From Vairimorpha necatrix (lineage: Eukaryota): DNA of 64,000 bases. The DNA is taken from positions 930,001-994,000 of the forward strand of contig CP142735.1 in NCBI GenBank assembly GCA_036630325.1. The letters are read 5' to 3'. A model generated the notes under the pieces. It was given only the letters and a program-made list of their open reading frames with translations. It did no database searches and was not told where the DNA came from. This document shows positions 9,509-62,622 of the stretch, one piece after another (the stretch's first letter is position 1; each line of letters opens with the position of its first letter). A program made the translations under genes and the position numbers.

Positions 9509-10489
9509 TTATTCTTTGTCATAAAAAGGGTATCTAATTTCATATTCTTGCTTATTTTGCATTAATGAATTATAATGATATATTTCTGGTGTCTCTTCCT
9601 CTAAATTTTCAGTTTCATTGTAAGGCGTACTAATTAAATCTTGATTATAATTTACCAAATCTTGGTTATAATTTGATAATTCTTGATTGAAATTTGATAA
9701 ATCTTGTGAATCCGTGGGTTCTTCTTTTATTATATTTTTACTTAATTCTTGCACATTAGAATACACGAATTTCTCATTGATTTTTCTAAAACTTTGATGC
9801 AAACCAGCAGAGTGCAAATTTTTTATAAATTTGTAAAATATCGAATTTTTAGATTTGCAATCTTTATAAATCATAATATTTTCTTTAAAAGATTTTAGTA
9901 AATTTGTTGGCTTCTGTAAATCTTCAGATATTTCTGTATTGTCTATTTTTTCTAGAAATAAAAATGCATTTGATTGATTTTTAATATTTAAGTTAACATT
10001 CTTCGGTAAGAATGTTTGTTTGAATTTGAAATATCTTAAAAGGCCCTTATGAAATTTTTCTTTATAAAATTTTTGGTCATCTTCGTATTTATGCACTATT
10101 TCTTTACTTATTCTTTCTTTATTGAGTAGTCTATTGTTTTTATTTATTTTTATAAATTTTTCCTTGTTTATTTCTGCCTCTTTTATTAAATAAATATATT
10201 CATCATAAAATATTATTTTATGACACTGGTTAAATATTTTACTAAGTGGCATGAATTTACATTCCATTAAATATCTTTTTAAATCGATAATCGACTCTTC
10301 TTTTTTTTCTTCTACTTTCTTTTTTCTTATGATTAATCTTTCCTCCTGCTGAACTAAGCGAGAATCTTTCTCAAAATCATAAAGATTTCTTATGTCATTT
10401 TTGTAAGTAAATGTATTGTAAATCTCTAATTTCATACTGTCTAGTTTATTGAAAAGATAATTTAACACTTTCTGCTTTTTATTCTTCAT
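9509..10489 (-). CDS. Hypothetical protein; weak resemblance to Eaf1/Vid21 (NuA4)
   Basis: 326-aa ATG ORF; PLSKIFNQCHKIIFYDEYIYLIKE loosely recalls Eaf1; C-terminal 7-aa repeat (QDLSNFN/QELSNYN/QDLVNYN) at about 9636-9706. Confidence 0.6.
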   Translation of the reverse strand: MKNKKQKVLNYLFNKLDSMKLEIYNTFTYKNDIRNLYDFEKDSRLVQQEERLIIRKKKVEEKKEESIIDLKRYLMECKFMPLSKIFNQCHKIIFYDEYIYLIKEAEINKEKFIKINKNNRLLNKERISKEIVHKYEDDQKFYKEKFHKGLLRYFKFKQTFLPKNVNLNIKNQSNAFLFLEKIDNTEISEDLQKPTNLLKSFKENIMIYKDCKSKNSIFYKFIKNLHSAGLHQSFRKINEKFVYSNVQELSKNIIKEEPTDSQDLSNFNQELSNYNQDLVNYNQDLISTPYNETENLEEETPEIYHYNSLMQNKQEYEIRYPFYDKE

Positions 10490-13400
10490 GTATTTCTAAT
10501 ATCTTTTTTTGGTCTTCCTTATTGTTTGTTTTTATATAAAAAAAAAAGAAAATATTTTTTTGTTTTTTATTTATTTTTTACCCCCAAAAATATAAAATTT
10601 AATAATATAAAATATTAATTATAGAGTTCTCGGACTTAAATAGATGTATTTAAAATAAAATTCTGAGTTATTATATGGGTAATATGTGTATTTAAAACAA
10701 GTTTTTTAAAAAAATTTAATACTAATTTTAAAGTGTTTAATTAACAAAAAAAGCCGTTATTTTTTAAAAAAAATAATTAGATTTTAAAGAAACATGTTGT
10801 CAACTTATTTTTTATTAAAGATTTATAATGACGTGTGTGGGGATTCTGACGCACTGTATTCATTAAAATATTCTGTCAGTTGAAATTTGAGTAACGTGAA
10901 TGACCGTCGTCATTCTTCTTTCTAACAGAATTATTTTATTTTTTGACCCTAAAAAGTAGAAAAAACTTAAACTTTGAAAAACGATGTACAATGTTTTGAA
11001 ATTCATTAAAATCAAATTTAAAGTTAATTTTAAGATATTGTAATTTAGATACTTATTTAAATGGGTGAAAAAAAAACTAGTCAACTATAAATTTTTTTTA
11101 AAAACTGAGCAAATTGCATTTAAAGTCTAAACCAAACTAGAAGATCATTGCCTTAAAAAAATACGAGGCAAATATATAATTAAATAAAAGAATTTTACCA
11201 TATTTTACAAATATTATAGAATTAAAGTCGAAAAGACAACAGACTGTTTTGCAACATCTAGAGATATTTAGAATGAGTTTATAAATACCCTTATGAGTTG
11301 TTTTGGTTTTTTTTTATTTTTGAGATAAATTAAAAGTATAAAATACATTGTCTATGTAAAGTAAAAATTATTACTTAGGTTGTAAAAAAGACAGCAACAA
11401 ATCTATGTGTATAATTACATCTTTTTTCTTCGATTATAATTAAAATTAGACTTTTTTTTTGAAAATTATTATATTCAACTTATATTTTTCTCTTAATGAT
11501 TTTTACAATTATTTAAAATTTATAATCTAAATATAACTATCAAATTAAATATTCTTTCAATCAAAAATCTGTTTTTTAGAATGATTAAGATTAAAAAAAA
11601 GAGCACATAATGAATATATAAAAATAAACCTTTTTTTATATAGTTGTATTTCTAGAGTATTATAAATTTTTAATTTCTAATAACAAAATTGTGCTCTTTT
11701 GATGACCCGATTTTCATCACATGGTTTAGAATTTAAAAAATATAAATGAAATTTTTTTAATAAAATTTTATTATTAATTTGATGATATAGATTAAAAAAC
11801 AAAATCTCTTTTTCGTATTTTATTAATTTTTCTATGGTTGTTGTATATCTTAAGTTATCAAAATTACGCTACATACATTAGTTATACATTATAATTGTAT
11901 TTAATTTGTTAATTATATTGCTTAATGTTTAAACGTGAAAAAAAGATTAATTTAATACTAAAAAAATTGACTGAGAATGATCTTTTTACAACAAAAAAGC
12001 AATAAAATGTAAAACTTTTTAAGTAAACATATAATTAATACATAAAGGTTAAAAAATATAATACTCATGGTATAAACATTGAGGATATTATATCATGTGA
12101 TTATTGTTTTAACTCAAATATAAATTAAAAATTTTAAGATTTACTTTTCTACATACATAATTAATTTATTTTTTAATTCATTAAAAACATTAAAACAATT
12201 ATAAAACATATATAATTGATTGATGTTTCTATTGTCGTATTTTTCAAAATTTCAAGGCTTTTGTATGTTAAAATTATACAACTATGTACACTTCTTCCAA
12301 TTTTAACTTAAGTACTTTGTATAATTAATTGAATATTACCTCACATTATTATATGCAATACAATATTTTTTATTAAACTATACATTGGCGCAACAGAACG
12401 AAACATAAAAAATACTTTGTTTAATTACAAATATAATTCAATGCTGAAATAAACAGAAACAAATACTTTTTTTTTCTAAAAAATATTCATATGTGGGTAA
12501 TTACTTGTTATGTGAGTAGAAATGAATTTCGTATACACACATTACATCTGTGTCATAAGGTTTTATACTTTTCTATCGACAATATCATTAATGACTAGAC
12601 TTATGACAGTACATCTTGTTCAATTTTTTTATAATTAAAAACTTTTGATGCTATTTACCAACACGGCTTTATAAAAACATGAGTAAATGTTATAAATATT
12701 CGCTCAATTATTATTTTATACTGAGATTTGTAATGTATGATACATAAAATTTAGGCCATTGTAGTATTTAGTTATTTAATTTGACAAATGTTTGTATTAT
12801 GCCAGCAAAAAAATGAATGAATTCTAATTATAGTAAATACTTTAAGTATTCTATAAAAAAAAAAATATTTACCATTCATCTTATTATCAAATTATTTATA
12901 ATAAAAAGTTTTAAATTTTGATGAGTGTTTGATTATAAATATCTTTTAATTTTATAGTTTGAAGATTTTTTAACTTAAACATAATTATAGACAGGTTAAT
13001 ATTTAGATTTTTTTTTTCAAATGGTCACTTTTTTTATTTACAAAGCAGCTTAAAATTTTTACTTTATTGTGTTCAGCATTCTATACATCTTTTTAGAAAA
13101 AAATTAAATCAAAGTGAAAAATATATAATCGTTGTTGGTGCTTGATTGTTTAAAATATGATAAAATCCAAAAATTTATCGATGTCTAAATGAAGAGTCAA
13201 AAAATCTTTAAGTATATTGTAAATTATTAACTACATACAATGAAATATACTTCTTTGTAAACAACTCATGTATAATCCACAACAACTTTCTTTAAAGAAT
13301 TTTACATATACTTCTTATTTTTTGAGTGTAAAAATTGATAATTAAATAAGAGTTGAATGCATTTTTAAAAGGTATACAATTGATTTTCATAATTCGTCTA

Positions 13401-21326: not shown

Positions 21327-22598
21327 ATGAACATCTTTTTCAATAAAAAATCCCAAGAAAAAATTTCAAAAAAATCACTTTTTATTGATAGAATAATAAC
21401 AGGCGAATATTCTTCTCTTAATGAAATTCTTCCTGATCTCAATGAAGATTGTATTTATTATTCTTTGATAACTTATATCTTGTCAAAAAATATTGAAAAT
21501 CTCAATTTGTTTATACAGGCAAACAAAATTGAAACGGATCTAGTTTTATATCTAATTAAAGAAAACATGTGTATAGAATATACTGTCAACTACTTAAATA
21601 ATATTAAAATTAGAGACTATTTGTATTTTATTTGTCTTAAAGAATTATTAATTAGAAATATAATTGATATAAATATCGACAAGTTACTAGACAAAATAGA
21701 TGATTACGACATTTATAAACATTGTATAAAAAACAATATTATACCTATGAAAAGGAATACCATCAATTATGAATATTACAAAATACATTGTAATAATTTT
21801 GATACTGTTGATAATTTATTGAATCATGTTAAAGATTATAAAAATATAGAATATATAACAAATATTATTAAAGATAAAGAGGCAAATAATGAAATTATTA
21901 AATTTATAAAAAATGGATTTGATAAAAATTTTTGTGTAAAATTTTTTGAAAAATTAAATTATCAATCAGAATTCGATATAATAAAATTAATACTTGCGCA
22001 CTTGATTTCCACAAAATCATCTAAGTATCTTGTACTTGCTTTATATTTGGCTAAGAAATTCTCATTTACATTTGTTAATAATTATGATATAAATTTAATA
22101 TATCTTTTTTTACTAAAATATTTTTTATTTTATGACGAAATAGTAAATGTATTTAAAAAGATGGATATTAAGAACAATCAGCTTCTTAATATGAGTTATA
22201 TTTGGAGTGACGTGTATATAATATGCACCGAGAAAGGTAAGGCAGTATCACCAGACATGAAAGATAAATATATTGAATACATTGAAGACTTAAAAGCCAC
22301 TATAAAAACCAGTATACCAGTATTTATAGAATCCAATAAAATATCGCATGCTATTAATATGATAAATTTATATAAAACGGTGGAAAATAATACAGTTTTC
22401 TTAGAATTAAACAAAAAAGAATTTATAAAAAACGAAGAAGAATATCAATTTAAAGATATGCTGAGTACAAGATGTGGATATTTATTTGATAAGAATAAAG
22501 AAGTGTACAGTCATGACGAGGAGGAATATTTTAAAAATGATATTTATGAAATAGAAGACGAAGAATTTAAAAAATGGTTTAGAGAACAAAATAAATAA
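21327..22598 (+). CDS. Hypothetical helical-repeat protein, possibly NatB auxiliary subunit (Naa25/Mdm20-like)
   Basis: NYDINLIYLFLLKYF...FKKMDIKNNQLLNMSY resembles the conserved Naa25 segment; CACCCTCTAAAATG start. Confidence 0.6.
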   Translation: MNIFFNKKSQEKISKKSLFIDRIITGEYSSLNEILPDLNEDCIYYSLITYILSKNIENLNLFIQANKIETDLVLYLIKENMCIEYTVNYLNNIKIRDYLYFICLKELLIRNIIDINIDKLLDKIDDYDIYKHCIKNNIIPMKRNTINYEYYKIHCNNFDTVDNLLNHVKDYKNIEYITNIIKDKEANNEIIKFIKNGFDKNFCVKFFEKLNYQSEFDIIKLILAHLISTKSSKYLVLALYLAKKFSFTFVNNYDINLIYLFLLKYFLFYDEIVNVFKKMDIKNNQLLNMSYIWSDVYIICTEKGKAVSPDMKDKYIEYIEDLKATIKTSIPVFIESNKISHAINMINLYKTVENNTVFLELNKKEFIKNEEEYQFKDMLSTRCGYLFDKNKEVYSHDEEEYFKNDIYEIEDEEFKKWFREQNK

Positions 22599-22673
22599 TT
22601 TTGATGATTTTTTTATTTTGCCATATCGCGGGTTTTTTAGAAACGTGCTTTTGCCGTCTTTCTTTGCTGCTTT

Positions 22674-23465
22674 TTTTTTTTTCTTGCAAATAAGAGGTAG
22701 GGAGAACCCTTACATAGAGACCAGAGGGATTTGGGTGTGATCCTCATCTAACTAATACTGTGAGATTCTTACTCACTAAAACTCCCTCCATACACTTGCC
22801 GGTGCAGCAAGCTCCGCCGTATCCATTGGACTTTGGCTCCAGGAGAACACTTTCCATTTATACCTCAAATCGCGTCCAGAGTGACCTCACAGCGGATATA
22901 CTTAACGGGCATGGTTATCAAAAACCCGAGGAGAGACATCATCGTACTGACTCAAAGGTCCCTACAATCATCCGTATTGCACACAAGGCTCCTTACACGA
23001 CCACATCCCCAGCCCGGCGTTTTTTTTATTGGGCTGCGTTGACCACCAGTCTCCCACTAGTTTCGGCCACCGTGTTACAGAATCATGTAGGATAGGGTCC
23101 ACGAGACCTTCTATTGCCCTACTTCGTCTAGTCTCTTAGTTAGCTCTAGGATCCCACTCTAGAGTGCACCAGCCATGGGCTCCAACTAGGCCTTACCCAT
23201 TAGATACTTTTATGTATCATTAAGTCACCAAAGAGTGTTCTGCTTTTTGGCCTTGAGGTGCGTTTCTACACTAGATGCTAATCCCCTTGTGGCTGGACAC
23301 ACACAAGTTTCATTGAATCAACTTAATGATTATCGTGGACATTTTCATCATCTGAGTTGTTCCAACTGCATCATAGAAAGTAGAAACAATTTTGGTGCCT
23401 CTGGGAATCGAACCCAGCCATTGCTCAATGGAAGCATTGCATTCTACCACTGTGCTAAGGGCACC
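22674..23465 (-). mobile_element. tRNA-derived SINE-like retroposon, copy 1 (young, full length)
   Basis: tRNA-like head 23465-23393 with A box TAGCACAGTGG and B box GGTTCGATTCC; ~700-bp GC-richer body; A-rich tail; perfect 15-bp TSD tttctttgctgcttt at 22659-22673 and 23466-23480; homologous copies at 43.1-44.6 kb. Confidence 0.9.
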
Positions 23466-25206
23466 TTTCTTTGCTGCTTTACGCTATCACCTTTTCTCAT
23501 CATCAACGGCAAAAATTTTCAAGAGTATTAAAAAAAAATATATTAATAAAAAATGATTCTTTCAGTGATTATATGTTATCCATTCTATGTATCATCTATG
23601 TAATTTTTTTGTCTATGTTCTGTATATTAAAGCAAATTCAATTGAAATTTTATCTAACGTTACATTTTTTTAATTAACTTGTTGTGTTTTAACATATGAT
23701 TTACATCGAACTCAACCGTGTTTTAATGGGAAAAAATATGTTTTGCACAGAATATTTATAAGTTCATGTTATTTGCATGCTAATTCATAAGCCGACCAAA
23801 AAGAATTAATGTATTTTTTAATAGATATGAAATTTGCCGGTTTTAATAATTGTTTTATTTTTTAGGTGTTTTTTTCTATTAAAATAAAGACAAATGAATT
23901 AATAGTACATTGAATAATTTTTTTTTGCTTTAGTCAGAAATTTGTAGCAAGGTTTGTAAAATGAAGGCAAATATTATAATTTAAAATAGTTTTTAAGAAT
24001 GAATGTTACGTTAAATTATTTATTTTAAGGTTTTTCGTATAAATTTTCTTGAATTTTTTTACTTTAATTTTAAAACTTTCTTTTTCTTCAGTCATTATTA
24101 CTTCATATTTTTTATATTCTTTAGTAAAAATTCAAAAAATTATTTTCCAACCTTAGACTGGTTATTTTATAACTGTATTTAGATTTTCCAAATACATTTA
24201 TGTTTATTTAACTTATTTGGGACATCATCTCCATAGTTTCGAACTCATGTTTATAAGTATCTTAAAATTTTCCACTTCTTTATTAAATTTTTTTGACCAT
24301 AGGATTTAAACCTTTTAATTTTTCAAGTATATTGTTTTAAAATGTATTTCTGAATTTAAGGAACATTAGTATGCCATTTTTTGTTATATTTTTTCGAAAA
24401 TATCTTTCAGCGTATTTTTCACTTAGTAGACAAGAAAATTGTTTTTATTAATATAACTAATTTCGTATTCCTTTTAAAAATAAGCCAAATTAATAAAAAA
24501 TCAACCTCAGAAAATGTTCATGAGTTAATTTTTTTTGATTTTTATATCTTTTACATGTCAACACTTTATTAAAAATATTTAATTTAAAAATTCAGGAAAA
24601 TATAGAAAACATTTCCATAAATACAAGATGCGTGCTTAATATACAAAATAATAATTAATTAAACCGTCGACATTTCTTTATAATAAAGACTGCTCAATAC
24701 TTATATATGAAAAGGCGGTGCGGATATTTTTTACAAAAAATGACCTATTTTCGTTTTAGAAATAGAACATCTTTTTTTTCAATTTAAATGTGTAAAAATC
24801 TTATAAACAAGAAAATAACAATATAAAACAATTATAGTTATAAGGGATTAGATTTTTCGTACAAGTATCGAAAATGGTGGATAAATATCAGAAAACGTTA
24901 TAAATAAGAATTTATTAGATTCTGCAAGCTAATATAGATTATTTTCATTGTTCTGATACACAAAATTACAATATTTACGATTAGATGTAGTATGGCGCGA
25001 TGTATTATTTTGGAGAAAAATTGCAAAATTTATCTAATAATACGCATATATTAAAAACCATTCTGAAGACACATATGCAAATAAAAAAGTGAAAGAATGC
25101 ATTTTTCATTCTCATATTTAACTAAATATACAATAAAAATACTTTATTCAGGTATAATATAATATCTTACTTACTAATTACTTTTCACAATCTATACTCA
25201 CAATTT

Positions 25207-31580: not shown

Positions 31581-31653
31581 GCCCGATTAGCTCAGTTGGT
31601 AGAGCATTAGGCTCTTAACCTAAGGGTCGCGGGTTCGAGTCCCGTATCGGGTG
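31581..31653 (+). tRNA. tRNA-Lys(CTT)
   Basis: GCCCGAT/ATCGGGT acceptor, TAGCTCAGTTGG, anticodon arm TTAGG-CTCTTAA-CCTAA, GGTTCGAGTCC, downstream T run. Confidence 0.96.
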
Positions 31654-36185: not shown

Positions 36186-37802
36186 ATGGATTCAGAATAT
36201 CAAAATATAATAAGTAGCAAACAAATTGACAAGTTTATTATAACAAACAAATACGAACCAGAAATAATATCCCCTTTTATAAATTATTTATTATCTAATA
36301 ATTATTCATACTGGGACTACAAATCCCTTCTGAATGTTATTATTGATATTAAAGATTTCTCAGAGTTACCAAATATTTTCCATTCTCTAGTCTCCAGTGA
36401 TTATGATTTATTAGATCTAATAGACACAATTAGTAAAATGTCTGTGAATATAATTCAGAAATTTAGAGGAGCTCCCATCTTAGTAGAGACTTTGTTTATA
36501 CTAGTAGATATTTCTAATATACTCTATGATAAAGAGTGGTATTATGAGACATGTGTCATTTTGAATATTGTGTCTCTGTTTATTACTAATTGTTATGTGA
36601 ATAATAAGAATTTGAATACTCAGTACTATAAAGTCATAAGTAAGATATTCTTAAGATCTGATAATTATTACTCGGCTCTTAATGCTTTAGAGGAGTTTAC
36701 TGATGATAATAAAGTATTTAGAAAAGATATCCTGATAGAATTACTGAAATATAAAAATGAGAAGAATAAATATTCTCAATATTTATTAAAGAAAGATCTA
36801 AAAGATTTCCAGAATGATCATCAAGTAGATTTATCCCCACCTTGGGATTTTTATATTAAAAATATAGGCCAGAAGATTAAATTTTGTAGAGAGAATATTA
36901 AGTTTATAAGTTTCCTTAGTAGACATAATATAGAATTCTCTAGAGAAGGAGATGATGTCATACTTGGTCATTACAAGTATCAATCAGTAGACAGTAGAGT
37001 ATGTGACATTATTGAGAAATATAAAAAGAAAGAAGAGAAAGTCAAGATCTTTAAAGAAGTGACAGTACAGAAAGAAGTCAAAGAGATCAAGAAGAAGAAA
37101 GAAGTGTCTTTCCCTGATAATTTTACACTTAAGAAAGCCAAGTTTAATATTTACTGTGATATTTTAAGGAATAAATATAAAAAGAGAGATATTATGTACA
37201 ATACGAGGAATGAGATGATGAAGAGACAAGTAGAGAGTTATAATAATATTATCAGGGAGAAGATGGAATTTCTTAAAGATGAGAGAGAAGAGATAGAAGA
37301 TATGCAATTAGAATTGATGATGAAGACTCAGAAGATCAGACCAGTGTATGTCAAGAAGGCAGAGGTAGTGACTAGAAGGAACTGGAGAGACGAGGACGAC
37401 GAAGAAGAGAAGAAGGTCTTTGTGCCGAGATATAAAAAAGAGACAGAATTTATATCAGAAAGGAATATTTACACATATGGAGACACAAATCAAGCCTATA
37501 AGCCCAGTGGAAATATTTACAAAATTCAAAATGATAATATTTACAGAAATCAAAATGATAATATTTACAGAAATCAAAATGATAATATTTACAGAAATCA
37601 AAATGATAATATTTACAAGTCTAAAACAGTCTACAAAGTAGACAGTGTAGAAATGCAGAGTAATATTTTCAGACCAAATATTTCTAATATAAAAATACAA
37701 GACACTACAAAGGAAAATATAAAAGAAGAAGATAAATACATTCCACCAGTAAAAAGAAATGAAAAAAGACAAGATTCATCAAGTTGGTATGATAAAAAAT
37801 AA
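36186..37802 (+). CDS. Divergent translation initiation factor eIF3a (Tif32)-like protein
   Basis: EWYYETCVIL...YYKVISKIFLRSDNY resembles eIF3a (ELWQEAF...YYEKLTKIFWVSENY); charged coiled coil; 24-bp repeat (QNDNIYRN, ~4 units) at 37527-37617; ATG 36186 after TACCCTTC. Confidence 0.6.
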   Translation: MDSEYQNIISSKQIDKFIITNKYEPEIISPFINYLLSNNYSYWDYKSLLNVIIDIKDFSELPNIFHSLVSSDYDLLDLIDTISKMSVNIIQKFRGAPILVETLFILVDISNILYDKEWYYETCVILNIVSLFITNCYVNNKNLNTQYYKVISKIFLRSDNYYSALNALEEFTDDNKVFRKDILIELLKYKNEKNKYSQYLLKKDLKDFQNDHQVDLSPPWDFYIKNIGQKIKFCRENIKFISFLSRHNIEFSREGDDVILGHYKYQSVDSRVCDIIEKYKKKEEKVKIFKEVTVQKEVKEIKKKKEVSFPDNFTLKKAKFNIYCDILRNKYKKRDIMYNTRNEMMKRQVESYNNIIREKMEFLKDEREEIEDMQLELMMKTQKIRPVYVKKAEVVTRRNWRDEDDEEEKKVFVPRYKKETEFISERNIYTYGDTNQAYKPSGNIYKIQNDNIYRNQNDNIYRNQNDNIYRNQNDNIYKSKTVYKVDSVEMQSNIFRPNISNIKIQDTTKENIKEEDKYIPPVKRNEKRQDSSSWYDKK

Positions 37803-37828: not shown

Positions 37829-37899
37829 TGCATCGTGCGGGAATCGAACCCACGTCTATCGAATGGCAACCGATAATTATACCACTAAACCAACGATGC
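37829..37899 (-). tRNA. tRNA-Gly(GCC)
   Basis: Reverse complement GCATCGTTGGTTTAGTGGTATAATTATCGGTTGCCATTCGATAGACGTGGGTTCGATTCCCGCACGATGCA forms a full cloverleaf. Confidence 0.95.
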
Positions 37900-43104: not shown

Positions 43105-44634
43105 AAATTCCTTGTAAGTAAGAGAAAGATAAATCATTACATACGGAACGAGAGACTTGAGATCTTCATGCAACTGATACTGTGTGATTCTTAGGTACAG
43201 TATCAACTGAATATTTAACTTGTCGGCAGAGCAAGCTTCGGCGTATCCATTAGTATTTTGCACCCGATAATCAAAGTTCATCTTAATCAACTTCGTTTAA
43301 AAAAAATCGTAGCTGATATAATTATCGAACATGTCCAGAAAACCAGATAAGACATTGTCTTACTGGTGCCTATAGTCCAGTGGTTAAATTAGATGCTTTC
43401 ATTGGTCAATGCCCTAGTTTGAATCCTAAAAGGCAAAATGAGTATTTCTGCTTTCTATAATGCTGATATAACAACTCAGATGAAAATGTCCACGGTAATC
43501 ATATAGTTGATTGCAATAGAACCTGTTTACAATTAGCCATAGAGGGGTTAGTATCCAGTATATAAACACACGTTATGGGCGAAAAAACAGTATTTACCTT
43601 GTGGTGACCTATCGATACATAAAGTTATATGATTTGTACGAGCAATTTTGAAACAATGATTGGTGCACTCTAGAGTGGGATCCTAGAGCTAACTAAATAA
43701 TCAGTGAAAAAACAAGAAAGGCTTCGTGGACCCAATCCTATAAGATTCTGTAACACGGTGGCCGAAACTAGTATTTGACTTATGGTCAACATAATCCAAT
43801 AAAAATGCCGGGCTGGTGATGTAGCCGCGAATGCGATACATAAAATTTAGGGATCTTTGAGTTAGTACGATGATGTCTCTCCTGGGGTTATAGATAACCA
43901 TGCCCGTTAAGTATATCCGCTGTGGCGTCACTCTGGTCGCGATATGAGGTACAAATGGAATGTGTTCTCCTGGATCAAAGTCCAAGAAATACGGCGGAGC
44001 TTGCCGCACCTGCAAGTTTTATTGGGGATTTGTAATGAGTAAGAATTTCACAGAACCAATTGGATAAAGATCAATCAAAACCCCTCTGATTCCTATGTAA
44101 GGTTTCTTCCTACCTTTTACTTGTAAAAAAAGACATTATCATACTCAAATAGAATATCTCTACTCCTACCATTATCCGCATCAGAACACGTCTCATTACG
44201 TTGCCATACCATCAAAATGCATTTTTTGGTTGCCTGTTTCTATTTTTCAAATAAAATATGTTTAGCGTGTGAATAATTATCTAAAATATGTTTCTTAGGA
44301 CCTTCTGCTATTACTCTTCTAATTCTATCATTTGCCTCGCAGTACATAAAAGTGCGTCGGGCAAAGGCTTTTTTTCATGGGGCATATATTTCGATATAAA
44401 AATAAATATAAAATTATACTTTTTTTTAAACTTACATTTGCTTTCTATCTAGATTCATTCCGCTTATGGTTAAACGCATGCAGGTTCAATACATCAACTT
44501 TACGATTACATATAAAGTATCATCATTATGAGGTTTTATACATCTCAGCATAAAAAGTATTTAGTATGTTTCAAAATCGAGTTCAAATTCTTTATGTATC
44601 TACACAATGATTTTATTCATTGACTCCGAGAACC
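43105..44634 (-). mobile_element. SINE-like retroposon, copy 3 (old, degenerate), split by copy 2
   Basis: 43105-43364 aligns with the 3' end of copy 1 (aatggatacg-c-gaagcttgc, taagaatcacacagtat, tatgtaa, cttacttacaag); 44130-44634 aligns collinearly with the middle and 5' part; outer ends approximate. Confidence 0.75.
43365..44129 (+). mobile_element. SINE-like retroposon, copy 2 (intermediate age)
   Basis: Starts ggtgcctatagtccagtgg (A box) with decayed B box agtttgaatcc; collinear with copy 1; ends ttgtaaaaa; 16-bp TSD aagacattgtcttact (43349-43364) / aagacattatcatact (44130-44145), 2 mismatches. Confidence 0.88.
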
Positions 44635-45221
44635 TGCCAAAACATCGTTTTTAGCATTTTTCATATAATATTTTAAAAAAGTCGATAATGAAATTTTGAT
44701 CTAAAGATAGGTTACATAAAGTTTACAAGCCTAAGGAAGTAAAATTAGAATTGTCAAGCTTTGTACTTTTAAAATACTTTTGTATTTGGAATATATAATA
44801 AATATTCCATACAAGCTTTAGATAGATGTTCCTTAGTATCAGGCAAGAAACAGAAAGAGCATGAACTTACTGGCTGAATCTTAAAATATGCTCAATCAGC
44901 CTAAAAGAAGTTAGTATAAAAGCTAAGCTTCTATTCGTCCTCGATGTTGATCTCCAAAGCAAGCTAAAAGGCTCTGAAAATTATACCCTCAAATAAATAC
45001 AATTTATCAGTAACGATTTATAGATATTAGACATCTGAAAAATTCATACATGTTAAAGTTATATACAATTTATTAATATCTTGAAATTTATATGGCATAC
45101 TAAACCCATCAAAAGTTCATATATTTTTAAAGTTAAATACAGTTTATTAATAACGGTAAATTAAATAAAATTGAAATGATTGACATTTTACAATTTTATG
45201 AACTTACAAGTTAAATAAATT

Positions 45222-45734
45222 TCATTCATACGAAAACATATTCCTATCATATAAATGTTCATACACGGGTACATTCTCTTCTTCAATATAATGATTATTA
45301 ATTACATTCTCATTTTCCATATAAGGTCCATTAGGCATGTTCTCATATAAATGTTGATAATGCTGATTGTTGGCCATATCCATAGCATAAATCTCAAAAT
45401 TCTCATCATAATAGTAAGGCTTTCCTCCCATTTGATAATTAGTAGTATTTTTACAATATTCAGAAGCCTGTTGCTGTTTTTTATGTTTGGCTCTTCTATT
45501 TTGAAACCATACTTGCACACATCTTGGAGTCATAGATAATTGATCTCCGAGTTTCTTTCTCATACATGAATCTGGTCTGGGACACACTTCAAATGTCTTC
45601 TCTAAAACTTTTAATTGTGCTTTAGTCGTTCTTTTACGATGCTTTACATAAAATGGATCATAATATTGATTAATATTTTCATTTTGAGATTGGATTTCAA
45701 AATTTTTATAGTAATTTCTCCCATATGGTTCCAT
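45222..45734 (-). CDS. Homeodomain transcription factor
   Basis: KHRKRTTKAQLKVLEKTF...VQVWFQNRRAK; ATG 45734 preceded by GGGT (ORF track uses an upstream TTG). Confidence 0.92.
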   Translation of the reverse strand: MEPYGRNYYKNFEIQSQNENINQYYDPFYVKHRKRTTKAQLKVLEKTFEVCPRPDSCMRKKLGDQLSMTPRCVQVWFQNRRAKHKKQQQASEYCKNTTNYQMGGKPYYYDENFEIYAMDMANNQHYQHLYENMPNGPYMENENVINNHYIEEENVPVYEHLYDRNMFSYE

Positions 45735-46324
45735 ACCCTTCAACTGGAAATTAAATAAATAATTGAATTTTTAATTTAAAACTTTCATGGCATTTTAATG
45801 AAAGTACGTAAAAATACACTTTTATCTCAAGTGTATTTTAAGTTTGATCATACCGTTTTTTTAATTAATTTTTAAACGTTAAATACATATAAACAAAATT
45901 GTTTTATAACTAAGAGATTTTCATTTTTTACTTTTTTATTTTCACTTTTAAGTACTTTTTTGCAATCATCAGTTACGTTAGCGTGTATTTTTTAAAAATG
46001 ATGAAGGATTTAAAAATCACGACATTTTTGACAGGCGCCAAGATGTTCAATTTATAGTAAATTATTATTTTATTACGCAATAAAAGACTTCAGTTAATCT
46101 TCTATCTATATTTGAGTAATGAATGTTAAATCTTTTCTAATAAAATTGTATGCTATCATTTTTTAAGATAGCATTACAATGATACAAACAACAAGATCAG
46201 TATATTTGTATATTACATGTAAATACCTATTTATTATTCAATGTTAAACAAATAATATTTATTGGTTTCAAATTTGAAACGTATGAAAACATTTTTTATA
46301 AATTAAAAACGGACAATATAAACA

Positions 46325-46930
46325 ATGGCTTATTTATTAGAAAGAGAAGACAGTCCTAGATGCACACTAGAAGGAGGTAAAAGAGAACAATTTACACAGA
46401 AACTTTTTACTGATTTAATACACGACTCACATGCAAAAAACCATGACTATTATCTAGGAAGAGTAAAAATTACTTCTCAGAATAAAATCGAATTCCATTG
46501 TTACGATGCAAGGCAATTGTGTAAGTATTTGTTCGAGATGGTCATTTCTACAGAAGGAAGAAAGATTCGTATAAAAAACTTTAAAGACCCAATTAGCCGG
46601 GAAGTTATTGATGATGTACACTTCTTTAGACTAAAATACGATTCAGACGAACCTTTGAGAGCAGAATATGTTGGAAATCATATAAAGTTCCTAGAAAGTA
46701 ATAGTTTAAGATCCAAAATATTTTATTCCGAAGATGCGCTTGACGCTTTGTCTGTTAATTTTCAGTTTAACAGCATTAAAAAAACCAATGTAATTGACAA
46801 AAGACGACTTTATGGGTTTTTATTGTTAGTTTTCTTTGGAATATTAGCGCTAAGCGGAATAGTCTTTTTCGTAGAGAAGAAAAAGAAAGTTGGAAGAATT
46901 AATGAAAAAATTAGATTACATCCCAAATAA
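46325..46930 (+). CDS. Hypothetical protein with C-terminal TM helix
   Basis: 201-aa ATG ORF; globular part (YDARQLCKYLFE, NFKDPISRE), TM segment and basic tail. Confidence 0.8.
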   Translation: MAYLLEREDSPRCTLEGGKREQFTQKLFTDLIHDSHAKNHDYYLGRVKITSQNKIEFHCYDARQLCKYLFEMVISTEGRKIRIKNFKDPISREVIDDVHFFRLKYDSDEPLRAEYVGNHIKFLESNSLRSKIFYSEDALDALSVNFQFNSIKKTNVIDKRRLYGFLLLVFFGILALSGIVFFVEKKKKVGRINEKIRLHPK

Positions 46931-47389: not shown

Positions 47390-47920
47390 TTATTTTGAGC
47401 TAGAATTCCAATCCATTGGACAAATTTCTCCATGCTCAGCTGTAAAATTTATAGCATCAATTATCCTTAATATTTCATCAGTGCTTCTTCCTATCATGTC
47501 ATTATATATAGACGTATATTTAACTTCTCCTTTAGTATCAAATATTAAAGTAGCTCTTTTAGTTATGTCTTCATCTTGATCATAAAATCCAAAAAGACCG
47601 CTTAATTTTGCACCGCTGTCCGATAACATAGGCCATTGAATGCCTTCAACTCCCCCATCTTGTCTGGGCAATTTAGCCCAAGCTTTGTGAGAATAAACCG
47701 AATCATTAGATATCAAAAAAACAACAGTATTACGTCTCGCAAACTCTTCTTTCCTATCAGAAATGACATTCAATTCAGTAGGACATACAAAAGTGAAATC
47801 ATTAGGATAAAATAAAAGTACTACGTTTTTGCCTTTATAATCTTTCAAATTTATAGTAGTAATATGGTCGTCTTCAAAAGCTTTAAATTGCATATCAAGA
47901 TTTATTTCTGGGAAATACAT
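47390..47920 (-). CDS. 2-Cys peroxiredoxin (Tsa1/AhpC family)
   Basis: FYPNDFTFVCPTE, DSVYSHKAW, GRSTDEILR, GEICP. Confidence 0.96.
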   Translation of the reverse strand: MYFPEINLDMQFKAFEDDHITTINLKDYKGKNVVLLFYPNDFTFVCPTELNVISDRKEEFARRNTVVFLISNDSVYSHKAWAKLPRQDGGVEGIQWPMLSDSGAKLSGLFGFYDQDEDITKRATLIFDTKGEVKYTSIYNDMIGRSTDEILRIIDAINFTAEHGEICPMDWNSSSK

Positions 47921-48171
47921 TTTATGGGTTTAAATTTAATATTTTATATCCCAGAAAAAAAGTTAACATATTAAAAAAATAACGGTTTAGTATTAATTTT
48001 ATACTGGTATAAAAAAATATAACTTTTGTAAAACAAAACAGATTCCTTTTGTATTTTCTGATTGACATGCATCAAAAAATAATTTAAAACATCAATCATA
48101 AAAATACGAAATATTGTGGTTTTAAAAATGTTTCATGTTCGCTTTTTGTTTTTTTTTACACATAAAAAATT

Positions 48172-50714: not shown

Positions 50715-52896
50715 TCTGGTCAAATTTTTTTGTGGTTTTAATATAGAAATGTACCAATAAATTAAAAATATATAGAATTTAATAAATAAAAATTATTATA
50801 TTTAAACTAATGGTTTAAGATTTATTTGACTGAGCAGAATAAAAAAAAAGACTCATAAATTTTTCTATTTAAATGGTTCATAGAAATGACGAATCAATAT
50901 ATTGTACAACATTGGACAAAATAACCAATAAGAAGAAAATACCCAAATCCCATAAATAAATGAGAACAACACAAAACTCAAATGCAAAAACAATATTACT
51001 AATTACAAACATACATTCAGCAGATAAAAAAGGACGAGTCACAGATTAAACAAATACGTAATATTAAAATCAAAAAAAAACGATTTGATAATTAAAAAAA
51101 AAACCTAAAATCTTCAAAAAAAAAATCCGTTATCTAAATCAATATATTCAACGTTTAATATTACTGCTGTTCCAAGTTTTTTATATTTTCCAATGTACAA
51201 TATTATTTCTAAAAAATTTTATTTGAATTAGAATAACTTATAAAGAAAAAAAAAATTAGTCAAAACAAAAAAGAACTCTCTTTGGAACTTCAAACTCAAA
51301 TAACGTAGTAAATAACATTATATCTGTTTTTTATGATGCCCAATTGCAGTTTCATTTTATCCAAATTAATTTACAAGAAAGTATTCGTATGACAATAGTT
51401 TGCATTATTATAAAATTCATGAATTGTTATACTGCTATTTGAAATAGACAAAATTCTTTAATTATGTTTAAGTCTTTAAAAAAAACATACAAATTTTTAG
51501 TTTTTAATTGAAATTAAATGATCTCTTTAACTATTATATACACATTTTACGGAGAATTGTTAATATTTTTTTACAAAAACTGAGTATAATTCTTTGACTT
51601 CTACTTTTCATTATTAGAATAGCGAAATATTTGTAGCATAACATAAGTTACAAAGGTATATAATTTTAATTTTTTGTAGATAATCTGTAATATATTTTGT
51701 AAGTATCTATAGTGTAATCTAAAGTATTTAATTCACGTTTGTTTAAAATTATAAAAATAATTTTACTAATGATATATAAAAGAAAAACTAATTTACACAT
51801 CAAAAATTTAGGATATTTTCGACAAAATACCTAAAACGTACAAATAAAGCATAATCTTTAGTTATATTGGGCATGGAATCCTAAAAATGTTTCAAACGAA
51901 TGAAAGATAGTTACAACATAACCTTATAGGTTGTTATTTTTTTTATCCTTATATAACGAGTTTTAAAAAAAAGAACCAAGAACAGCAACAAATACTATAT
52001 ACATGTTTATTGGAAATAGGAAATAAATATATATCAAAAAATCTAATCTCTAGACAATGTTATCTATTTTTTAAGATAAAAAATAATAAAAAAAGGATCA
52101 TAGATCAGTTTTGAAAAAATCAAACGCTTGTTCAAAATTTAAGATTGTTTTTATAATGCTAAGAGAATTTTATTAATATGGCGGCGATTAGCTGCCTAAA
52201 CCATGTGTTTTTATTTATATCTTACTGAAGAATCAAATTTTGCGTACAAATATATGTTATATTTAATATCCTTAACGCGAAAGCAGTCAATAACCCATGC
52301 CTTTTCTTGGTCCTCGTTTTTATATATCATTTTTTATGGCATAAAAAATATAAACGAAAGGCATAAATGCGTAGTTGTAGGTATCTATGCTTTAGTAAAC
52401 TTTTATATTTATTAATGAGATTAAGTACAACTAAGGAAAAAATGTCTACATAAAATCTTATTACACAATATTTTTGAAAAGACAAATATGTGTTAAGTGA
52501 CTATAATATATAAGGTATTCCCATAACATATAATTTACAGGCAAAATAGATGTGTTTAATATACACTTAAATCATATTTATCGTATGATCGACCAACCTA
52601 TTAATTAAATTTTTGATAAATTAAAACAGATAAATTTTATCAAGTTTTTTTATAAATATCTTTATGTGTTTTTTATTCAGAAAAATTATGGCTAATCGTT
52701 TTTACTTCTCAATAAATGTTATTAAATAGCAATTCAATTTGTTTATTTTTGATAAAAATTTTACAATTACTTTTTTTAGTTGAATTGCTTATAAATACTT
52801 GTTAGAAAAACTATTTTATACTATACAAGCATTTAATTAATCCTAATTAAAAAAAATCACAGGTTTTTATGAATGAATTTTTTGACAACCCTAAAA

Positions 52897-53883
52897 ATGC
52901 TGATATTTGCATCTATTTTATCAATTGAATCTTCATTAAACAACTCTAATCATGTACTTAAAAGGGTTTTAGATCCTGGAAATATACATTCTTACATAAA
53001 TGAAATGAATGTGTATGATGATTATGATGATATATTGAGACTTCCCGATTATCACAATGATACGAAACGTGTCGAACATAATATAGTTTCATTAAATAAT
53101 ACCTATAACAATTTCGTTAGTTGTCCAAAAAGCTATCCGTTTATTCAGAAGAAACTTCATTATTCACAGATTAATTGGCAAGCCATCCACGAGGCAACTG
53201 ATGTTGTATTCTCTGGGTTAGTAAGTAATTTTAGTGTAAGAACATTAATCCGTATGGTAGCTTATATGTCGAATGTAAATCCTTTTATTGATCTAAGATC
53301 CTTTTTTGAAAAATTTATAACAAAATTTTTAATGAAAAAAAGAACATCACGAAAATTGAGACCAATAGGCCATCTTTGTGAGTATCTAGCTTATCATAGC
53401 TATGATCTAGTTTTCGATTTAAGTTTTTATTCGTCTTTTAAAGATAAAAAGGAAATAGAAGGCCTTGAACTTGTAGTTTCAAAATTTGTTGATCTTGAAA
53501 TGGATTTTAATTGTCCTTGGCATATAATACAACTATACAATGAAAGTATGTATGCAAATCCTCATATTAATTCAACCGAAAATAATACTGCAAAATTATC
53601 TGTATCAATACAGGATAACGTCAATAATTCAAAAAATGATGCGCCAATTTATATCGAAACCGAAGAAACCCAAGATTTATTTCGCGCTCTTATACCTCCG
53701 ACAAAAGATTATTTAACAGATGAGTCTCGGAGCAAGATTAAAAGAAATGTTGATTCTCTAGATAATGTTAAATCGGAAACAACCAAAAATAAAGATGTGA
53801 TACACAATGATTCGGCTGAGTCAAACCATAATGGAAATAATGAGCATTATCTTAAAGAGATTTTTGGGAATAATATTTTTTGA
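52897..53883 (+). CDS. Lineage-specific putative secreted protein, paralog A
   Basis: Short hydrophobic N-terminus MLIFASILSI after ACCCTAAAA; clear similarity to 57908-58888. Confidence 0.8.
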   Translation: MLIFASILSIESSLNNSNHVLKRVLDPGNIHSYINEMNVYDDYDDILRLPDYHNDTKRVEHNIVSLNNTYNNFVSCPKSYPFIQKKLHYSQINWQAIHEATDVVFSGLVSNFSVRTLIRMVAYMSNVNPFIDLRSFFEKFITKFLMKKRTSRKLRPIGHLCEYLAYHSYDLVFDLSFYSSFKDKKEIEGLELVVSKFVDLEMDFNCPWHIIQLYNESMYANPHINSTENNTAKLSVSIQDNVNNSKNDAPIYIETEETQDLFRALIPPTKDYLTDESRSKIKRNVDSLDNVKSETTKNKDVIHNDSAESNHNGNNEHYLKEIFGNNIF

Positions 53884-55580: not shown

Positions 55581-57907
55581 AATATAAGTCTTGCTTTGAT
55601 TCATTTTAATGTATATTGTGATGCTAATTCCGGTCGCCGACGTAATATTATTTTAGCATTAAATTGAGATTGTTTTTTGCTTTTTTAGCCTCCATGTTCT
55701 ACCTCCCTTCCTCAGTTTCATGCCTACGGAGGGATGGTATTTATATGTATAATTGCTGATGACACATTAGAAGATTTTTGAAAAACGAAAAATAGTGTTA
55801 AGTGAGCATCTTTTAAGCGCTTTATTCCATATTTAGGCCTGCGTAATTTGTAAGTCATCGGCCAATTGCTTCCTCGGTCTTTGAGAACCAATAAATAAAA
55901 CTTATTTTTATAAAAATACATCTTTCAGTATGCAGTTGGATTTAACCCCTGACGTAATACATTTTGATTTCTTTCCATATCTTTACGTCAAACTTGTATG
56001 GGTTAAAATTTCTTCAATTAATTAAGTAAACTATGAAATAAAATTGCTCCATAAAAACAGAAACTGAAATAAATAAGTTTTTAATAAAATTTCATCTCTA
56101 GCGGCCCAAGAGTTCTGATCTTAAAAATAAATTATAAACTACATACTATAAATTTAATTATTCTATTTTTTTACGGTATTGGCCTATAGTCTTTATTTGT
56201 AGTTTGTTTATTTTTCTTTTGCAATTATGAATACTTACTGAAATTACAAACAAAATTAAAAATTTAGTTTGTATGAACGTAGGGATTTTAAAACTTTTTT
56301 AAAAAAAATTAAGACTTGCCACTTCATAATTATTAAATGATACATCAAATTCTTCTTTTACCTCACTTAATAAAATAGGATAAATTCTTAATTACATTAT
56401 TCGTTTTATATATTGTTAACATTAATAAGTAATTTAGTACGTTGAATGTATGATCATCCATAACGGTGACGCAAATTTACCTGTCCATGCGTGAGTCCCC
56501 ACTTTGCATAAATATTTTTTTTGTTATCTAGGTCATATATTTTCGTAATTAATCGGCAATCAAGCTGTAGTTTTATAACTTAAGTACAGCAATTTTTCTG
56601 TTTAAATATTTTGTTCGCAAAAAAAAAATACAAAGGTATAAAATTAAAAGATTTAATTTAGTTTGTTGTGAGCATTATGCATTTTAGTCTAAAAAAATTT
56701 TGCGGCAATAAAATTTTTGACATCTTTAAATAGTAAAAACGTTCGCCTTTTTGGTAAATTTTTAATATGTCCCGGCAGTCACTGTTTAAAGCAAATTTAT
56801 ACATTAAACTTTGAGTTATAAAAATCTTATTATATGTTAAACCTTACATTATAGTGGACAACTAATTTTTTCTGTAAGTCTAAAAAAGGATCAAATTCCT
56901 AAACTTAAATTTTCGTAACTTTTCTATTTTAAATCACAATCAAACATTTTTAATCAATGATGATTTTTTTAAAATTATATAGAATTTCTTACTCTATACT
57001 TCCTAATAACGGTAAAAAAAAACTTGTTGAAATAACATTTAATTATTTTGGTCAATGTTCTCTTTGTTTGTGTGTAATCTAAATTTTATTTTATAAATCT
57101 AAATAATTAAATCTAACTAATTAAATCTATAGTTATTTCAAATATTAATAACAATTTTATTCTTACTAGTTGCAAAAACTGAATCTTAAAATACAATAAT
57201 ACCGCAATAACAGAAATATATTAAGATCTAAGATGGCAATGTTAAAGTTTAATTAAATAATCTAAAAATACTGAAACTCTCAGCTAGTAAGTTCCCAGTA
57301 TAAAAAAATTCAAACAACCAAATGATTAAAGTTACAACATAAAAGTTATCACAATAATTTGTAGAAAACCCACAGTGTTCTAGTGCACTATAAATATTTA
57401 CTATTTTAACAAATATCATTCATGTCGCATTAAATAATAATAATAATATGATATTTGTCGTAGCCGATCAAATACTGACTAATCATCTTCTTACAAATGG
57501 ACAGATTTGATTGGCTACAAAAAGTAATTATAAGCAATTTCAAAAGAGGGACTAGAAGATAAGAATAAAGTTATTGACAATATTAATAAAATTGTAAACC
57601 AGAGCTTTAATTAAATTTTTAAAAAATTGTAGCACAAACATTCTAAAATTTTAAAATTAATTTTCTCATTTTATCTTTGTCGAGTTTTATTTGATCTTAA
57701 GTGCCTATTTTTTTACAGCCCATTCTGTGTCATTGTATCGTAATTTTATTTAATCATTTTTATAAAAATTTAACATACACATATTTTATATAATTAAAAA
57801 ATTCCTTTTCTTTTTGAAAATTATTTCATCTTTAAAATATTTTTAAAAAAAATCTATCGTTATAAATTATATCAAAAGATTTTATAAACTATTTATTAAC
57901 ACCCAAA

Positions 57908-58888
57908 ATGTTAATTTGTATCTCTATTTTATCAATTGCAGCTTCAAAAAACAACTCTAATTTTGTAATACAAAAAATTTTAGATCCCGAGAATATACCT
58001 TCTTACAGAAATAAAATAAATGTGTACGATGATGATTTTATAGTTAGAATACTAAATAATCCTAATATTACAAAATTTGATGCTCATAATTTAGTTTTAT
58101 TAAATAAAATCGATACCAGCAAATTTAATTGTTCGGATAGCTATCAATTTAAACAGAAAAAACTTCATTATTCCGAAGTTAATTGGCAAGCCATTTTTAA
58201 TGCATCTGATGTTGTATTCTATGCTCTTATAATGCATAAAGATGTAAGTAAATTAATACGTATAGGATTATATATGTCGAGTGCAAATCCCTTGTATGAT
58301 TTAAGATTTCTCTTTAAAAAATTAATAACAAAATTCTTATCGAAAAAAAATATATCACGAAAGCTGAAACCAATTGGTCATCTTTTTGCATATTTAGCTT
58401 ATCATAGCTATGATTTAGTTTTCGATTTGAGTTTTTACTCTTCTTTTAAAGATTTAAATGAAATAGAAGATCTTAAACTTGTAGTTTCGAAATTCGTTGA
58501 TCTTAAAATAGATTATGATTGTCCGTGGCGAATTATACAATTATATAATGAAAATATGTTTGCAAATTCTCATATTAATTCAACAGAATATACTACTGCA
58601 GAATCACACGTACTAATACAAGAAAAGGCAATAACTGTGAACAAGTATACTCCAATTAACACGAAAACTGTTGAAACACAAGATTTGATTCAAGATGTGG
58701 ATCTTCCGGCGTTAGATTATTCAACAGAAGAGTCAGAAGGTGATATTAAAAAAGATAAAGCTACAGAGAGTACTAAATTGGAAACAAAAAAAATCAAAGT
58801 TGTATTACATTCTAAATCGACTGTGCCAAAGAATAATGAAAAGAATGAATATTATCTTAAAAAGTTCTTTGAAAATAATACACTATGA
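57908..58888 (+). CDS. Lineage-specific putative secreted protein, paralog B
   Basis: MLICISILSIAAS after ACACCCAAA; shares KKLHYS.NWQAI, YLAYHSYDLVFDLSFYSSFKD and CPW.IIQLYNE with paralog A. Confidence 0.8.
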   Translation: MLICISILSIAASKNNSNFVIQKILDPENIPSYRNKINVYDDDFIVRILNNPNITKFDAHNLVLLNKIDTSKFNCSDSYQFKQKKLHYSEVNWQAIFNASDVVFYALIMHKDVSKLIRIGLYMSSANPLYDLRFLFKKLITKFLSKKNISRKLKPIGHLFAYLAYHSYDLVFDLSFYSSFKDLNEIEDLKLVVSKFVDLKIDYDCPWRIIQLYNENMFANSHINSTEYTTAESHVLIQEKAITVNKYTPINTKTVETQDLIQDVDLPALDYSTEESEGDIKKDKATESTKLETKKIKVVLHSKSTVPKNNEKNEYYLKKFFENNTL

Positions 58889-61465: not shown

Positions 61466-62622
61466 GGTTAAATTGCGATGTTACCCCCCCCACCCCTAAA
61501 AAAATAAAAAAAGGGGAAAAAATAAAAAAAAGGGGAAAACTAAAATTTTAGAAAACTAATATATAAAAAAGAGGAATTATTTTTATTTCTTCTTGAAAAA
61601 AATATATTGAAGGTACCAATATGCAATAAGTGCATGACACCCATGACCAAAATTAGAAATAATTTGGACAAATATCGTTGTTACTTACGACGAAATGGGA
61701 GAAAATGCTCAAACAAAGGTAACATTTACAAAGAAAGCATTTTTAAAAGTTCTAGATTAGATATCGAAGATCTTTTAATTTTGCTGTGTGAATGGGTTAA
61801 AGGTGTAAGCAATGTTTCGGCTACTATCGAATTGGATATAGATAGTAGTACCGTATCTCGCTGGTTTACGCGTTTTAATAACGCTGTATTCTTATCCTAT
61901 TTCAACTACCTTCAAAACAAAACCATGGGAGGTTTAAATTGCGTAGTTGAAATAGACGAGACATTGCTTGTTAAAAGTAAAAACCATAACGGTAGAATCC
62001 TTCAATACCAAGTTTGGGCCGTTGGTGGAGTTGTACGAGGAGACATCAATTCTTTTTTTTTCGAAATTGTTGAAAATCGATCAAGAACTACTCTTGTCGA
62101 TTTAATAAAACGAAAAATCGCACCTGGATCTACAATTATTACTGATTGTTGGCGGGGTTATGAAGGGTTTTCGGAACTATGTCCGGATGATAACTATTTA
62201 CATTTAACTGTAAATCATAGACAAAATTTTGTAAATCCAACAACAGGCCACCACACCCAAACAATTGAAGGAATGTGGTCTGTAATTAAAAAGGATTTGC
62301 GCAAAGAAGGAACAAGCCATGGTTCTTTAATGAATCTAATTCGAAAACTTTTTTAGCTCGTTTTAAGTTAATTTATAGAGAATCACTACTTGAAAAAATG
62401 TTATGCTTTTTTGAAGTTCAAAATATTTGTTTTTTAAATTACGAGTTAGCCCCTGAATTTGATGTTGAAATAATTGAATAAATTTTAGTTTTGTCTTTTT
62501 TTAATTTTTTCCCCTTTTTTTAATTTTTTCCCCTTTTTTTTATTTTTTCCCCTTTTTTTTATTTTTTCCCCTTTTTTTATTTTTTTAGGGGTGGGGGGGG
62601 GGGGTAACATCGCAATTTAACC
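61466..62622 (+). mobile_element. Merlin (IS1595/IS1016-like) DNA transposon, near intact
   Basis: TIRs ggttaaattgcgatgttacccc...cacccctaaaaaaa; perfect 8-bp TSD aataattt (61458-61465, 62623-62630); subterminal A-rich+gggg repeats (2 left, 4 right). Confidence 0.95.
61544..62481 (+). pseudogene. Merlin transposase; no upstream ATG and an apparent 1-nt frameshift near the 3' end
   Basis: CNKC zinc-finger start, VEIDET, IITDCWRGY, HLTVNH, HTQTIEGMWS; frame open from 61544 with no ATG before the Cys motif; TAG at 62354-62356 ends a T6 run, and a shifted frame continues to TAA at 62479-62481. Confidence 0.8.

Follow-up and report, generated by a model that had tools for sequence, protein, structure and literature searches.

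Short interspersed elements (SINEs) that stem from transfer RNA (tRNA) are a textbook class, usually 100–600 bp in length, with short length not strictly defining. Among fungi, they are represented by MgSINE of Magnaporthe, Foxy of Fusarium and Eg-R1 of Blumeria, the last of ca 700 bp. The AfuSINE2 families of Aspergillus fumigatus have likewise been described as tRNA-derived SINEs (PMC5063351). Here, we describe a repeated non-coding element, found in a 64-kb stretch of the genome of the microsporidian Vairimorpha necatrix. This whole stretch of 64,000 nucleotides is called the window below. An earlier reading of the same letters, called the original prediction, had taken the element for an unusually long, recently active SINE with a tRNA-like head. 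We will argue that the element is very likely a tRNA-derived SINE family that is resident in a Vairimorpha/Nosema-type microsporidian genome and is copied by a long interspersed element (LINE) via target-primed reverse transcription.

No description of a microsporidian SINE was found in the open full-text literature on microsporidia and Nosema, as far as its text is openly available. In the available portions, the term is absent from the V. necatrix genome paper, which reports about half of the genome as repeats (PMC10759460), from a survey of microsporidian transposons (PMC4202319), and from three further papers (PMC7313128, PMC11592040, PMC12449221). For Microsporidia sp. MB, SINEs are reported to be absent (PMC11585130), and in the accessible part of PMC13702014 they occur just as a RepeatMasker category. 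The surveys of microsporidian transposons are, in the portions available, either protein-based or without the word SINE. The family is thus apparently not yet described for microsporidia, a statement based on the open literature rather than on repeat libraries; published libraries, such as RepeatModeler output for V. necatrix, may hold it as an unclassified repeat.

Architecture and copies of the element in the window

The coordinates of the element and its parts are collected in Table 1. Copy 1 has a GC content of 45.8%, compared to ca 26% for the window, where the 2-kb bins vary between 20 and 33%. On the minus strand, the element runs from 23465 down to 22671 and is flanked by a repeat, as originally predicted. 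The 5' junction reads ...GCGT, then AAAGCAGCAAAGAAA, then GGTGCCCTTAGCACAGTGG..., the element itself beginning with GGTGCC, and the 3' end ...TTTGCAAG is followed by A12; in its context, this end reads ...CTCTTATTTGCAAG, twelve A's, and then GCAGCAAAGAAAGACGG. The predicted A tail and 15-bp target-site duplication are both present, the latter having its 15 bp if the three A's shared with the tail are counted. Twelve bases of the duplication are unambiguous and one more G is ambiguous, which gives a range of 12–16 bp. The 5' junctions are also as predicted, T/AAAG for copy 1 and T/AAG for copy 2, with the slash marking the junction. With 783 nt plus tail for copy 1 and ca 760 nt for copy 2, the element is longer than the usual SINE range. 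Copy 1 is located ca 60 bp downstream of an open reading frame (ORF) at 21327-22598 (+), in the opposite orientation.

Table 1. Positions of the element copies, their parts, and the tRNA genes of the window.
Feature	Position	Strand	Remarks
Copy 1, full-length element	22671..23465	minus	783 nt + A12 tail = 795 nt
A12 tail of copy 1	22671..22682	minus	
5' target-site duplication of copy 1, AAAGCAGCAAAGAAA	23466..23480	minus	T precedes
3' target-site duplication of copy 1, GCAGCAAAGAAA	22659..22670	minus	three leading A's merge with tail
tRNA-like head	23393..23465	minus	ARAGORN, Rfam tRNA, B box, fold; anticodon arm aberrant
A-box-like motif TAGCACAGTGG	23457-23447	minus	33 nt upstream of B box
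B box GGTTCGATTCC	23414-23404	minus	match to B-box consensus
Longest identical block, 36 nt	23136..23171	minus	copies 1 vs 2; contains hairpin with 6-bp arms, CTCTAG...CTAGAG
Most conserved 3' domain	~22790..22950	minus	82-93% identity of copies 1 and 2 in 40-column bins
Identical block of 32 nt inside 3' domain	22919-22888	minus	copies 1 vs 2
Copy 2, full-length	43365..44131	plus	75.4% identity to copy 1 over 793 columns (BLASTN); 38.7% GC; A7 tail
5' target-site duplication of copy 2, AAGACATTGTCTTACT	43349..43364	plus	T precedes
3' target-site duplication of copy 2, AAGACATTATCATACT	44130..44145	plus	14/16 match to AAGACATTGTCTTACT, first 8 perfect
Copy 3, 5' part	44146..44638	minus	old, heavily decayed, ends approximate; BLASTN 44410-44559, 66.7% over 156; alignment
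Copy 3, 3' part	43108..43364	minus	old, decayed, ends approximate; BLASTN 43108-43365, 64.5% over 273; alignment
tRNA-Gly(GCC) gene	37829-37899	minus	first T-run T4, longer T-run ~40 nt further
tRNA-Lys(CTT) gene	31581-31653	plus	first T-run T6

Two more copies had been predicted at 43-44.6 kb, and this region indeed contains copy 2 together with a copy 3 that is split around it. Copy 2 begins with GGTGCC, as copy 1 does. The pieces of copy 3 were found by a more sensitive BLASTN search of the element against the window, and they correspond to the element's 3' third (43108-43365) and to its positions ~84-235 (44410-44559). The 3' part abuts the 5' end of copy 2, and copy 3 is too decayed for a tail or duplication to be judged. 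An alignment shows the two minus-strand fragments to be the halves of one old copy, split by the insertion of copy 2. The window, to which the in-genome count of three copies refers, thus records three insertions of different age, one of them nested. Since the full copy 2 sits inside a much older copy 3, the family has jumped repeatedly in the V. necatrix genome. The prediction of a discrete, multi-copy, non-coding retroposon is supported, with target-site duplications of variable length and at least three insertions in the window, one of which went into an older copy. As regards the nested insertion at 43349-44145, three copies are too few to tell a preference for the element's own sequence from one for AT-rich intergenic DNA.

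Copies 1 and 2 differ by 170 substitutions. In 94 of these, copy 2 has A/T where copy 1 has G/C, compared to 40 in the opposite direction. This AT shift of copy 2 fits with older copies drifting toward the composition of the genome.

The first 73 nt of copy 1 are recognized as a tRNA by ARAGORN, which labels it 'Met' with the anticodon cat at an abnormal position of the loop. With the Rfam tRNA model, the head obtains 25.5 bits (E 0.008 when 921 nt are searched), which falls short of the gathering score of 29, and a scan at the gathering threshold reports just the two real tRNA genes and not the head. An A-box motif and the B-box consensus GGTTCGANNCC are commonly taken as the internal signals of such genes, and the head has an A-box-like motif and a B box. 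Apart from the head, just the two real tRNA genes of the window match the B-box consensus, which makes three occurrences compared to a mean of 0.035 in shuffled windows. The predicted tRNA-like head with signals of the RNA polymerase III (Pol III) type is accordingly present, exactly at the 5' junction. The proposal that it is Gly-like is, on the other hand, not substantiated: in addition to the 'Met' call, its global alignment score is 12 to tRNA-Gly(GCC), just slightly above the 7 to tRNA-Lys(CTT), and the Lys and Gly genes themselves score 7 against each other. On these grounds, the head is a tRNA relic that is degenerate, though not random, and whose anticodon arm is abnormal.

No run of four or more T's is found just 3' of the head in copy 1, in agreement with the terminator that the original prediction reported as missing. 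The first such runs are a T5 at element position 542 and a T4 at 685, whereas the real tRNA genes of the window have a T6 or a T4 within a few bases downstream.

The body of the element shows no sign of coding. Copy 1 has 8–19 stops in each of the six frames, and in the sense direction its open frames reach 55 codons at most. Longer ones exist in antisense, where copy 1 has a frame of 125 codons and copy 2 one of 105; the two share the start register and then part through an indel, and a coding body was rejected. A search of a large protein collection with the 125-residue antisense translation returned three candidates, none of them at E 0.001 or better. With stops in all frames and no frame kept between the copies, the body is without a credible ORF, as had been proposed. 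A permissive Rfam scan (E up to 10) for known RNA families in the body, that is, rRNA, signal recognition particle (SRP) RNA, RNase P/MRP, small nuclear RNA and ribozymes, gave nothing credible. A match to the R2 3'-element (12.2 bits, E 8) was dismissed as noise.

Conserved blocks and relatives in other runs

The full-length comparison within the window is that of two sequences, copies 1 and 2, and their identity is very uneven, with uninterrupted matches over 36, 32, 29 and 20 nt. The five longest runs sum to 133, a value that 0 of 5000 shuffles of the match/mismatch string reach, their mean being 75.5 and their maximum 125; the longest single run is reached in 14 of 5000. The 36-nt block is also kept in an RNA-library contig of another organism, called organism E here, and pieces of the 3' domain are kept in two public runs, X4 and the RNA library X19 of organism E. 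Exact-pattern scans of the conserved blocks gave 0 matches in the metagenome, viral and genome contig collections. Most likely, these strongly conserved blocks represent RNA modules required by the master copies for copying or stability.

Words of the element are present in 20 of 24 listed public runs, from 17 studies, with one run holding half or more of the words; the shares are small in 13 environmental runs. The contigs of four runs were aligned to positions 22300-23800 of the window at 80% likeness. The richest set, run X2 of an organism A, comprises 289 contigs, 46 of them at ≥99% identity, 49 at 95-99%, 73 at 90-95% and 121 below 90%. Apart from values of 2.4 and 0.21 in two flank bins, the depth is confined to the bins 22657-23472, and the summed depth is ca 170-810, compared to 3-6.5 for the single contigs listed. 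The contigs break at 22674 and at 23466 (three at the latter) into AT-rich sequence, and these are the same ends as those of copy 1. Since the 289 contigs cover the element alone and not its flanks, the element is a high-copy family in organism A, whose sequence has no match to the flanks of this locus at 80% likeness.

At the boundary between head and body (23392), some of the X2 contigs turn to another tRNA-like T arm, which resembles the head of copy 2. These divergent heads imply at least two subfamilies, so that copies 1 and 2 owe some of their difference to subfamily rather than age. The 20 contigs of run X1, a bat gut metagenome, show the same behaviour as those of X2, and in both runs the flanks of the copies are AT-rich like this genome (agreement 0.59-1). 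In X19, three partial contigs were obtained, two of which keep the conserved blocks while the 76 and 174 letters between them are replaced, a pattern that mirrors that of copy 1 versus copy 2. Run X4 has 10 contigs, eight of them less than 90% alike; four pieces, of 42, 128, 36 and 39 nt, fall within the element. Another four, on the AT-rich flanks, look like low-complexity matches.

The relatives also bear on the state of copy 1. It differs from the X2 majority at ca 14–17 listed positions, including the two changes that make its T5; the X2 majority, X1 and copy 2 have TTATA at that place, and the T5 is accordingly derived. Because real tRNA genes in this window are followed by a T6 or a T4, the internal T5 and T4 make full-length Pol III transcription of copy 1 itself doubtful, and judging from these differences copy 1 probably represents a dead daughter and not a master copy. 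The recent activity assumed in the original prediction stands in part: the perfect duplication and the pure A12 make it plausible for copy 1, while the derived T5, which is absent from most of the relatives, speaks the other way. As a separate observation, the presence of a T4 after one real tRNA gene and a T6 after the other bears on whether an internal T4 halts SINE transcription.

Proposed mechanism of copying and competing explanations

Both full copies have the head at the exact 5' junction (2 of 2), and their A12 and A7 tails, together with duplications that differ in sequence and length, fit with target-primed reverse transcription. Integrases and transposases leave short duplications of fixed length, and the variable duplications found here therefore argue against them. 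Three other origins were considered, namely a long terminal repeat (LTR) element, a DNA transposon and a randomly 5'-truncated LINE tail, and they do not fit with the features of the element. A head at the junction, a non-coding body presumably reached by read-through, an A tail, the T/AAAG and T/AAG junctions, variable duplications, a constant 5' end and numerous dispersed copies all agree instead with a Pol III-type SINE that a LINE copies via target-primed reverse transcription.

According to the mechanism that we favour, a master copy would be transcribed by Pol III by means of the A and B boxes inside its tRNA-like head. Because no T-run follows the head, the transcript would continue through both the body of ca 710 nt and the encoded A tail. 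An autonomous non-LTR element, i.e. a LINE, would then supply the endonuclease that nicks a T/AA(A)G site. Once the A tail has paired with the T's exposed there, the reverse transcriptase of the LINE would copy the RNA in place. A staggered second nick 12–16 bp off would finally yield the target-site duplication. Transcription by Pol III, a LINE as the partner and a preference of its endonuclease are all features that we infer, whereas the anatomy, the exact ends, the repeated and in one case nested insertion, the missing coding capacity and the high copy number in organism A are shown. As to possible partners, LINE families have been tabulated for Nosema, their number rising from 4 in N. ceranae through 6 in N. 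antheraeae and 11 in N. bombycis to 15 in N. apis (PMC4202319, Table 1), and ca 109 retrotransposable elements are reported for V. necatrix (PMC10759460). The summed contig depth of X2, which is a rough measure, is 193-420 at the 3' end of the element and 672-813 at the 5' end; the lack of an excess at the 3' end speaks weakly against an abundant LINE with the same tail.

It should be noted that several findings weigh against a Pol III-transcribed SINE copied by a LINE. The head scores below the Rfam gathering score and its anticodon arm is abnormal, and the element exceeds the length of most SINEs. Copy 1 contains an internal T5 and T4, the kind of run that follows the real tRNA genes here. 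The one RNA library aligned, X19, gave three partial contigs, which may stem from DNA carry-over, reveal neither start site nor strand, and are no proof of expression. The endonuclease preference is derived from two sites, and none of the 36 window ORFs scanned contains a reverse transcriptase or endonuclease domain.

A more far-reaching version of the SINE reading can be formulated, in which the near-invariant blocks, set in sequence that is otherwise more than 20% diverged, are functional RNA modules and mark an undescribed conserved-domain SINE superfamily present in several microsporidia, possibly exchanged among them or with their hosts. We regard this version as tentative and rather unlikely. 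One possibility is that such modules serve as a handle for a microsporidian LINE reverse transcriptase.

The blocks can also be explained in another way, with the copies being retropseudogenes of a functional structured cellular RNA. A tRNA-linked master gene would then be selected for its own function and the copies would be its by-products, as Alu is to 7SL RNA. Such selection would account for blocky conservation between copies beyond chance and for the same blocks being kept in the contigs of a third organism while the letters between them are replaced. The RNA of the full element also folds somewhat better than its shuffles, none of 20 reaching its minimum free energy (z-score −2.2). RNAalifold applied to copies 1 and 2 proposes a structure of 170 pairs, in 10 of which both sides have changed, but this structure is fitted to the same two sequences and is not evidence of a conserved fold, and two sequences cannot establish covariation. 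Moreover, there is no Rfam match other than tRNA, even at E up to 10, the copy number is high with many diverged copies (as in the 289 X2 contigs), and SINE superfamilies with a conserved central domain show the same pattern without a known cellular function, as far as the available portions of the literature describe them (PMC4758252, PMC5499810, PMC11481361). A cellular RNA as the source is for these reasons improbable.

The higher GC content of the element, the presence of its words in many unrelated samples, and the documented exchange of transposons between microsporidia and animals (PMC4202319) raise the question of whether it could be a host (insect) SINE gained horizontally, with the microsporidian copies being recent imports instead of a resident family. 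Three copies of clearly different age, one of them nested, speak rather for long residence and repeated amplification, and the copies in X1 and X2 have AT-rich flanks like those of this genome. Furthermore, older copies decay from GC to AT, so that the high GC of a young copy needs no foreign source; constraint on the master copies, with later decay of the old ones toward AT, explains it equally well. A recent import from a host is thus very improbable, as distinct from an ancient horizontal transfer, which may have taken place. Finally, that the copies are 5'-truncated 3' ends of a LINE, with no separate SINE, can hardly be right: such truncation is a common outcome of LINE activity, but both full copies begin at the same base with a tRNA-like head right after the duplication, the X2 cover stops at 23472 with three contigs ending at 23466, the X2 depth, rough as this measure is, shows no excess of the 3' end over the 5' end, and there is no ORF remnant.

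Surroundings, significance and relation to described SINEs

The genes of the window are intron-free housekeeping genes, including ubiquitin E1, uL3, uL30, Sec1, haspin and other kinases. The uL3 protein is identical in 383 of 384 residues to chain 6rm3_LB0 of the Protein Data Bank (PDB), entry 6rm3 being the Vairimorpha necatrix ribosome. The window accordingly belongs to V. necatrix or to a strain nearly identical with it, and the assignment of the DNA to a microsporidian, made earlier from the letters, is thereby corroborated. Elsewhere in the window, a 270-codon open frame at 61544-62353 (+) contains an ISXO2-like/IS1595 DDE transposase domain (PF12762, E 3.9e-12), a match of the kind expected of a Merlin-type DNA transposon; Merlin is reported in microsporidia (PMC4202319, Table 1). 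The ORF at 46322-46927 (+) has a strong match to DUF5092 (PF17010, E 3.4e-42) and adjoins a homeodomain ORF (45225-45770, −) and a peroxiredoxin ORF (47393-47929, −), and these look like ordinary genes. Five long ORFs of 326–538 codons, at 21327-22598 (+), 36186-37802 (+), 52873-53883 (+), 57866-58885 (+) and 9512-10495 (−), have no Pfam match at E 0.001-0.01.

The family is an ordinary kind of genomic parasite, and the general understanding of SINEs is left unchanged by it. A defined SINE family would nevertheless improve the repeat annotation, and its insertions would give polymorphism markers for strains and for the four pseudo-haplotypes. It would also show that a non-LTR retrotransposition machinery has been active in this lineage, and would offer a handle to test horizontal movement of non-autonomous elements among intracellular parasites. 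The less ordinary traits of the family are its length, the sharply conserved blocks, and its presence in several organisms.

With the tRNA-derived SINEs of fungi, the element shares the tRNA-related head with Pol III boxes, the non-coding body, the A-rich 3' end, the short duplications of variable length, and the dispersed copies. Unlike them, it is longer than most, microsporidian, and has blocks that are sharply conserved across organisms; the comparison is based on the described features of these elements. The named conserved SINE domains are, to our knowledge, from animals and not from microsporidia. The tRNA-like head and the near-invariant blocks amid divergence across copies and organisms nevertheless resemble the CORE, V, Deu and Meta superfamilies, as described in the accessible parts of PMC4758252, PMC5499810 and PMC11481361, and for these, as for Nin-DC, the comparison is based on architecture. 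Compared to Alu and B1/B2, finally, the head is tRNA-like and not 7SL-derived, and the element is 2.5–5 times longer, but it has in common with these elements and their LINE-1 partner the textbook features of an encoded A tail, T/A-rich nick sites, duplications of ca 7–20 bp, and no need for a 3' tail shared with the LINE.

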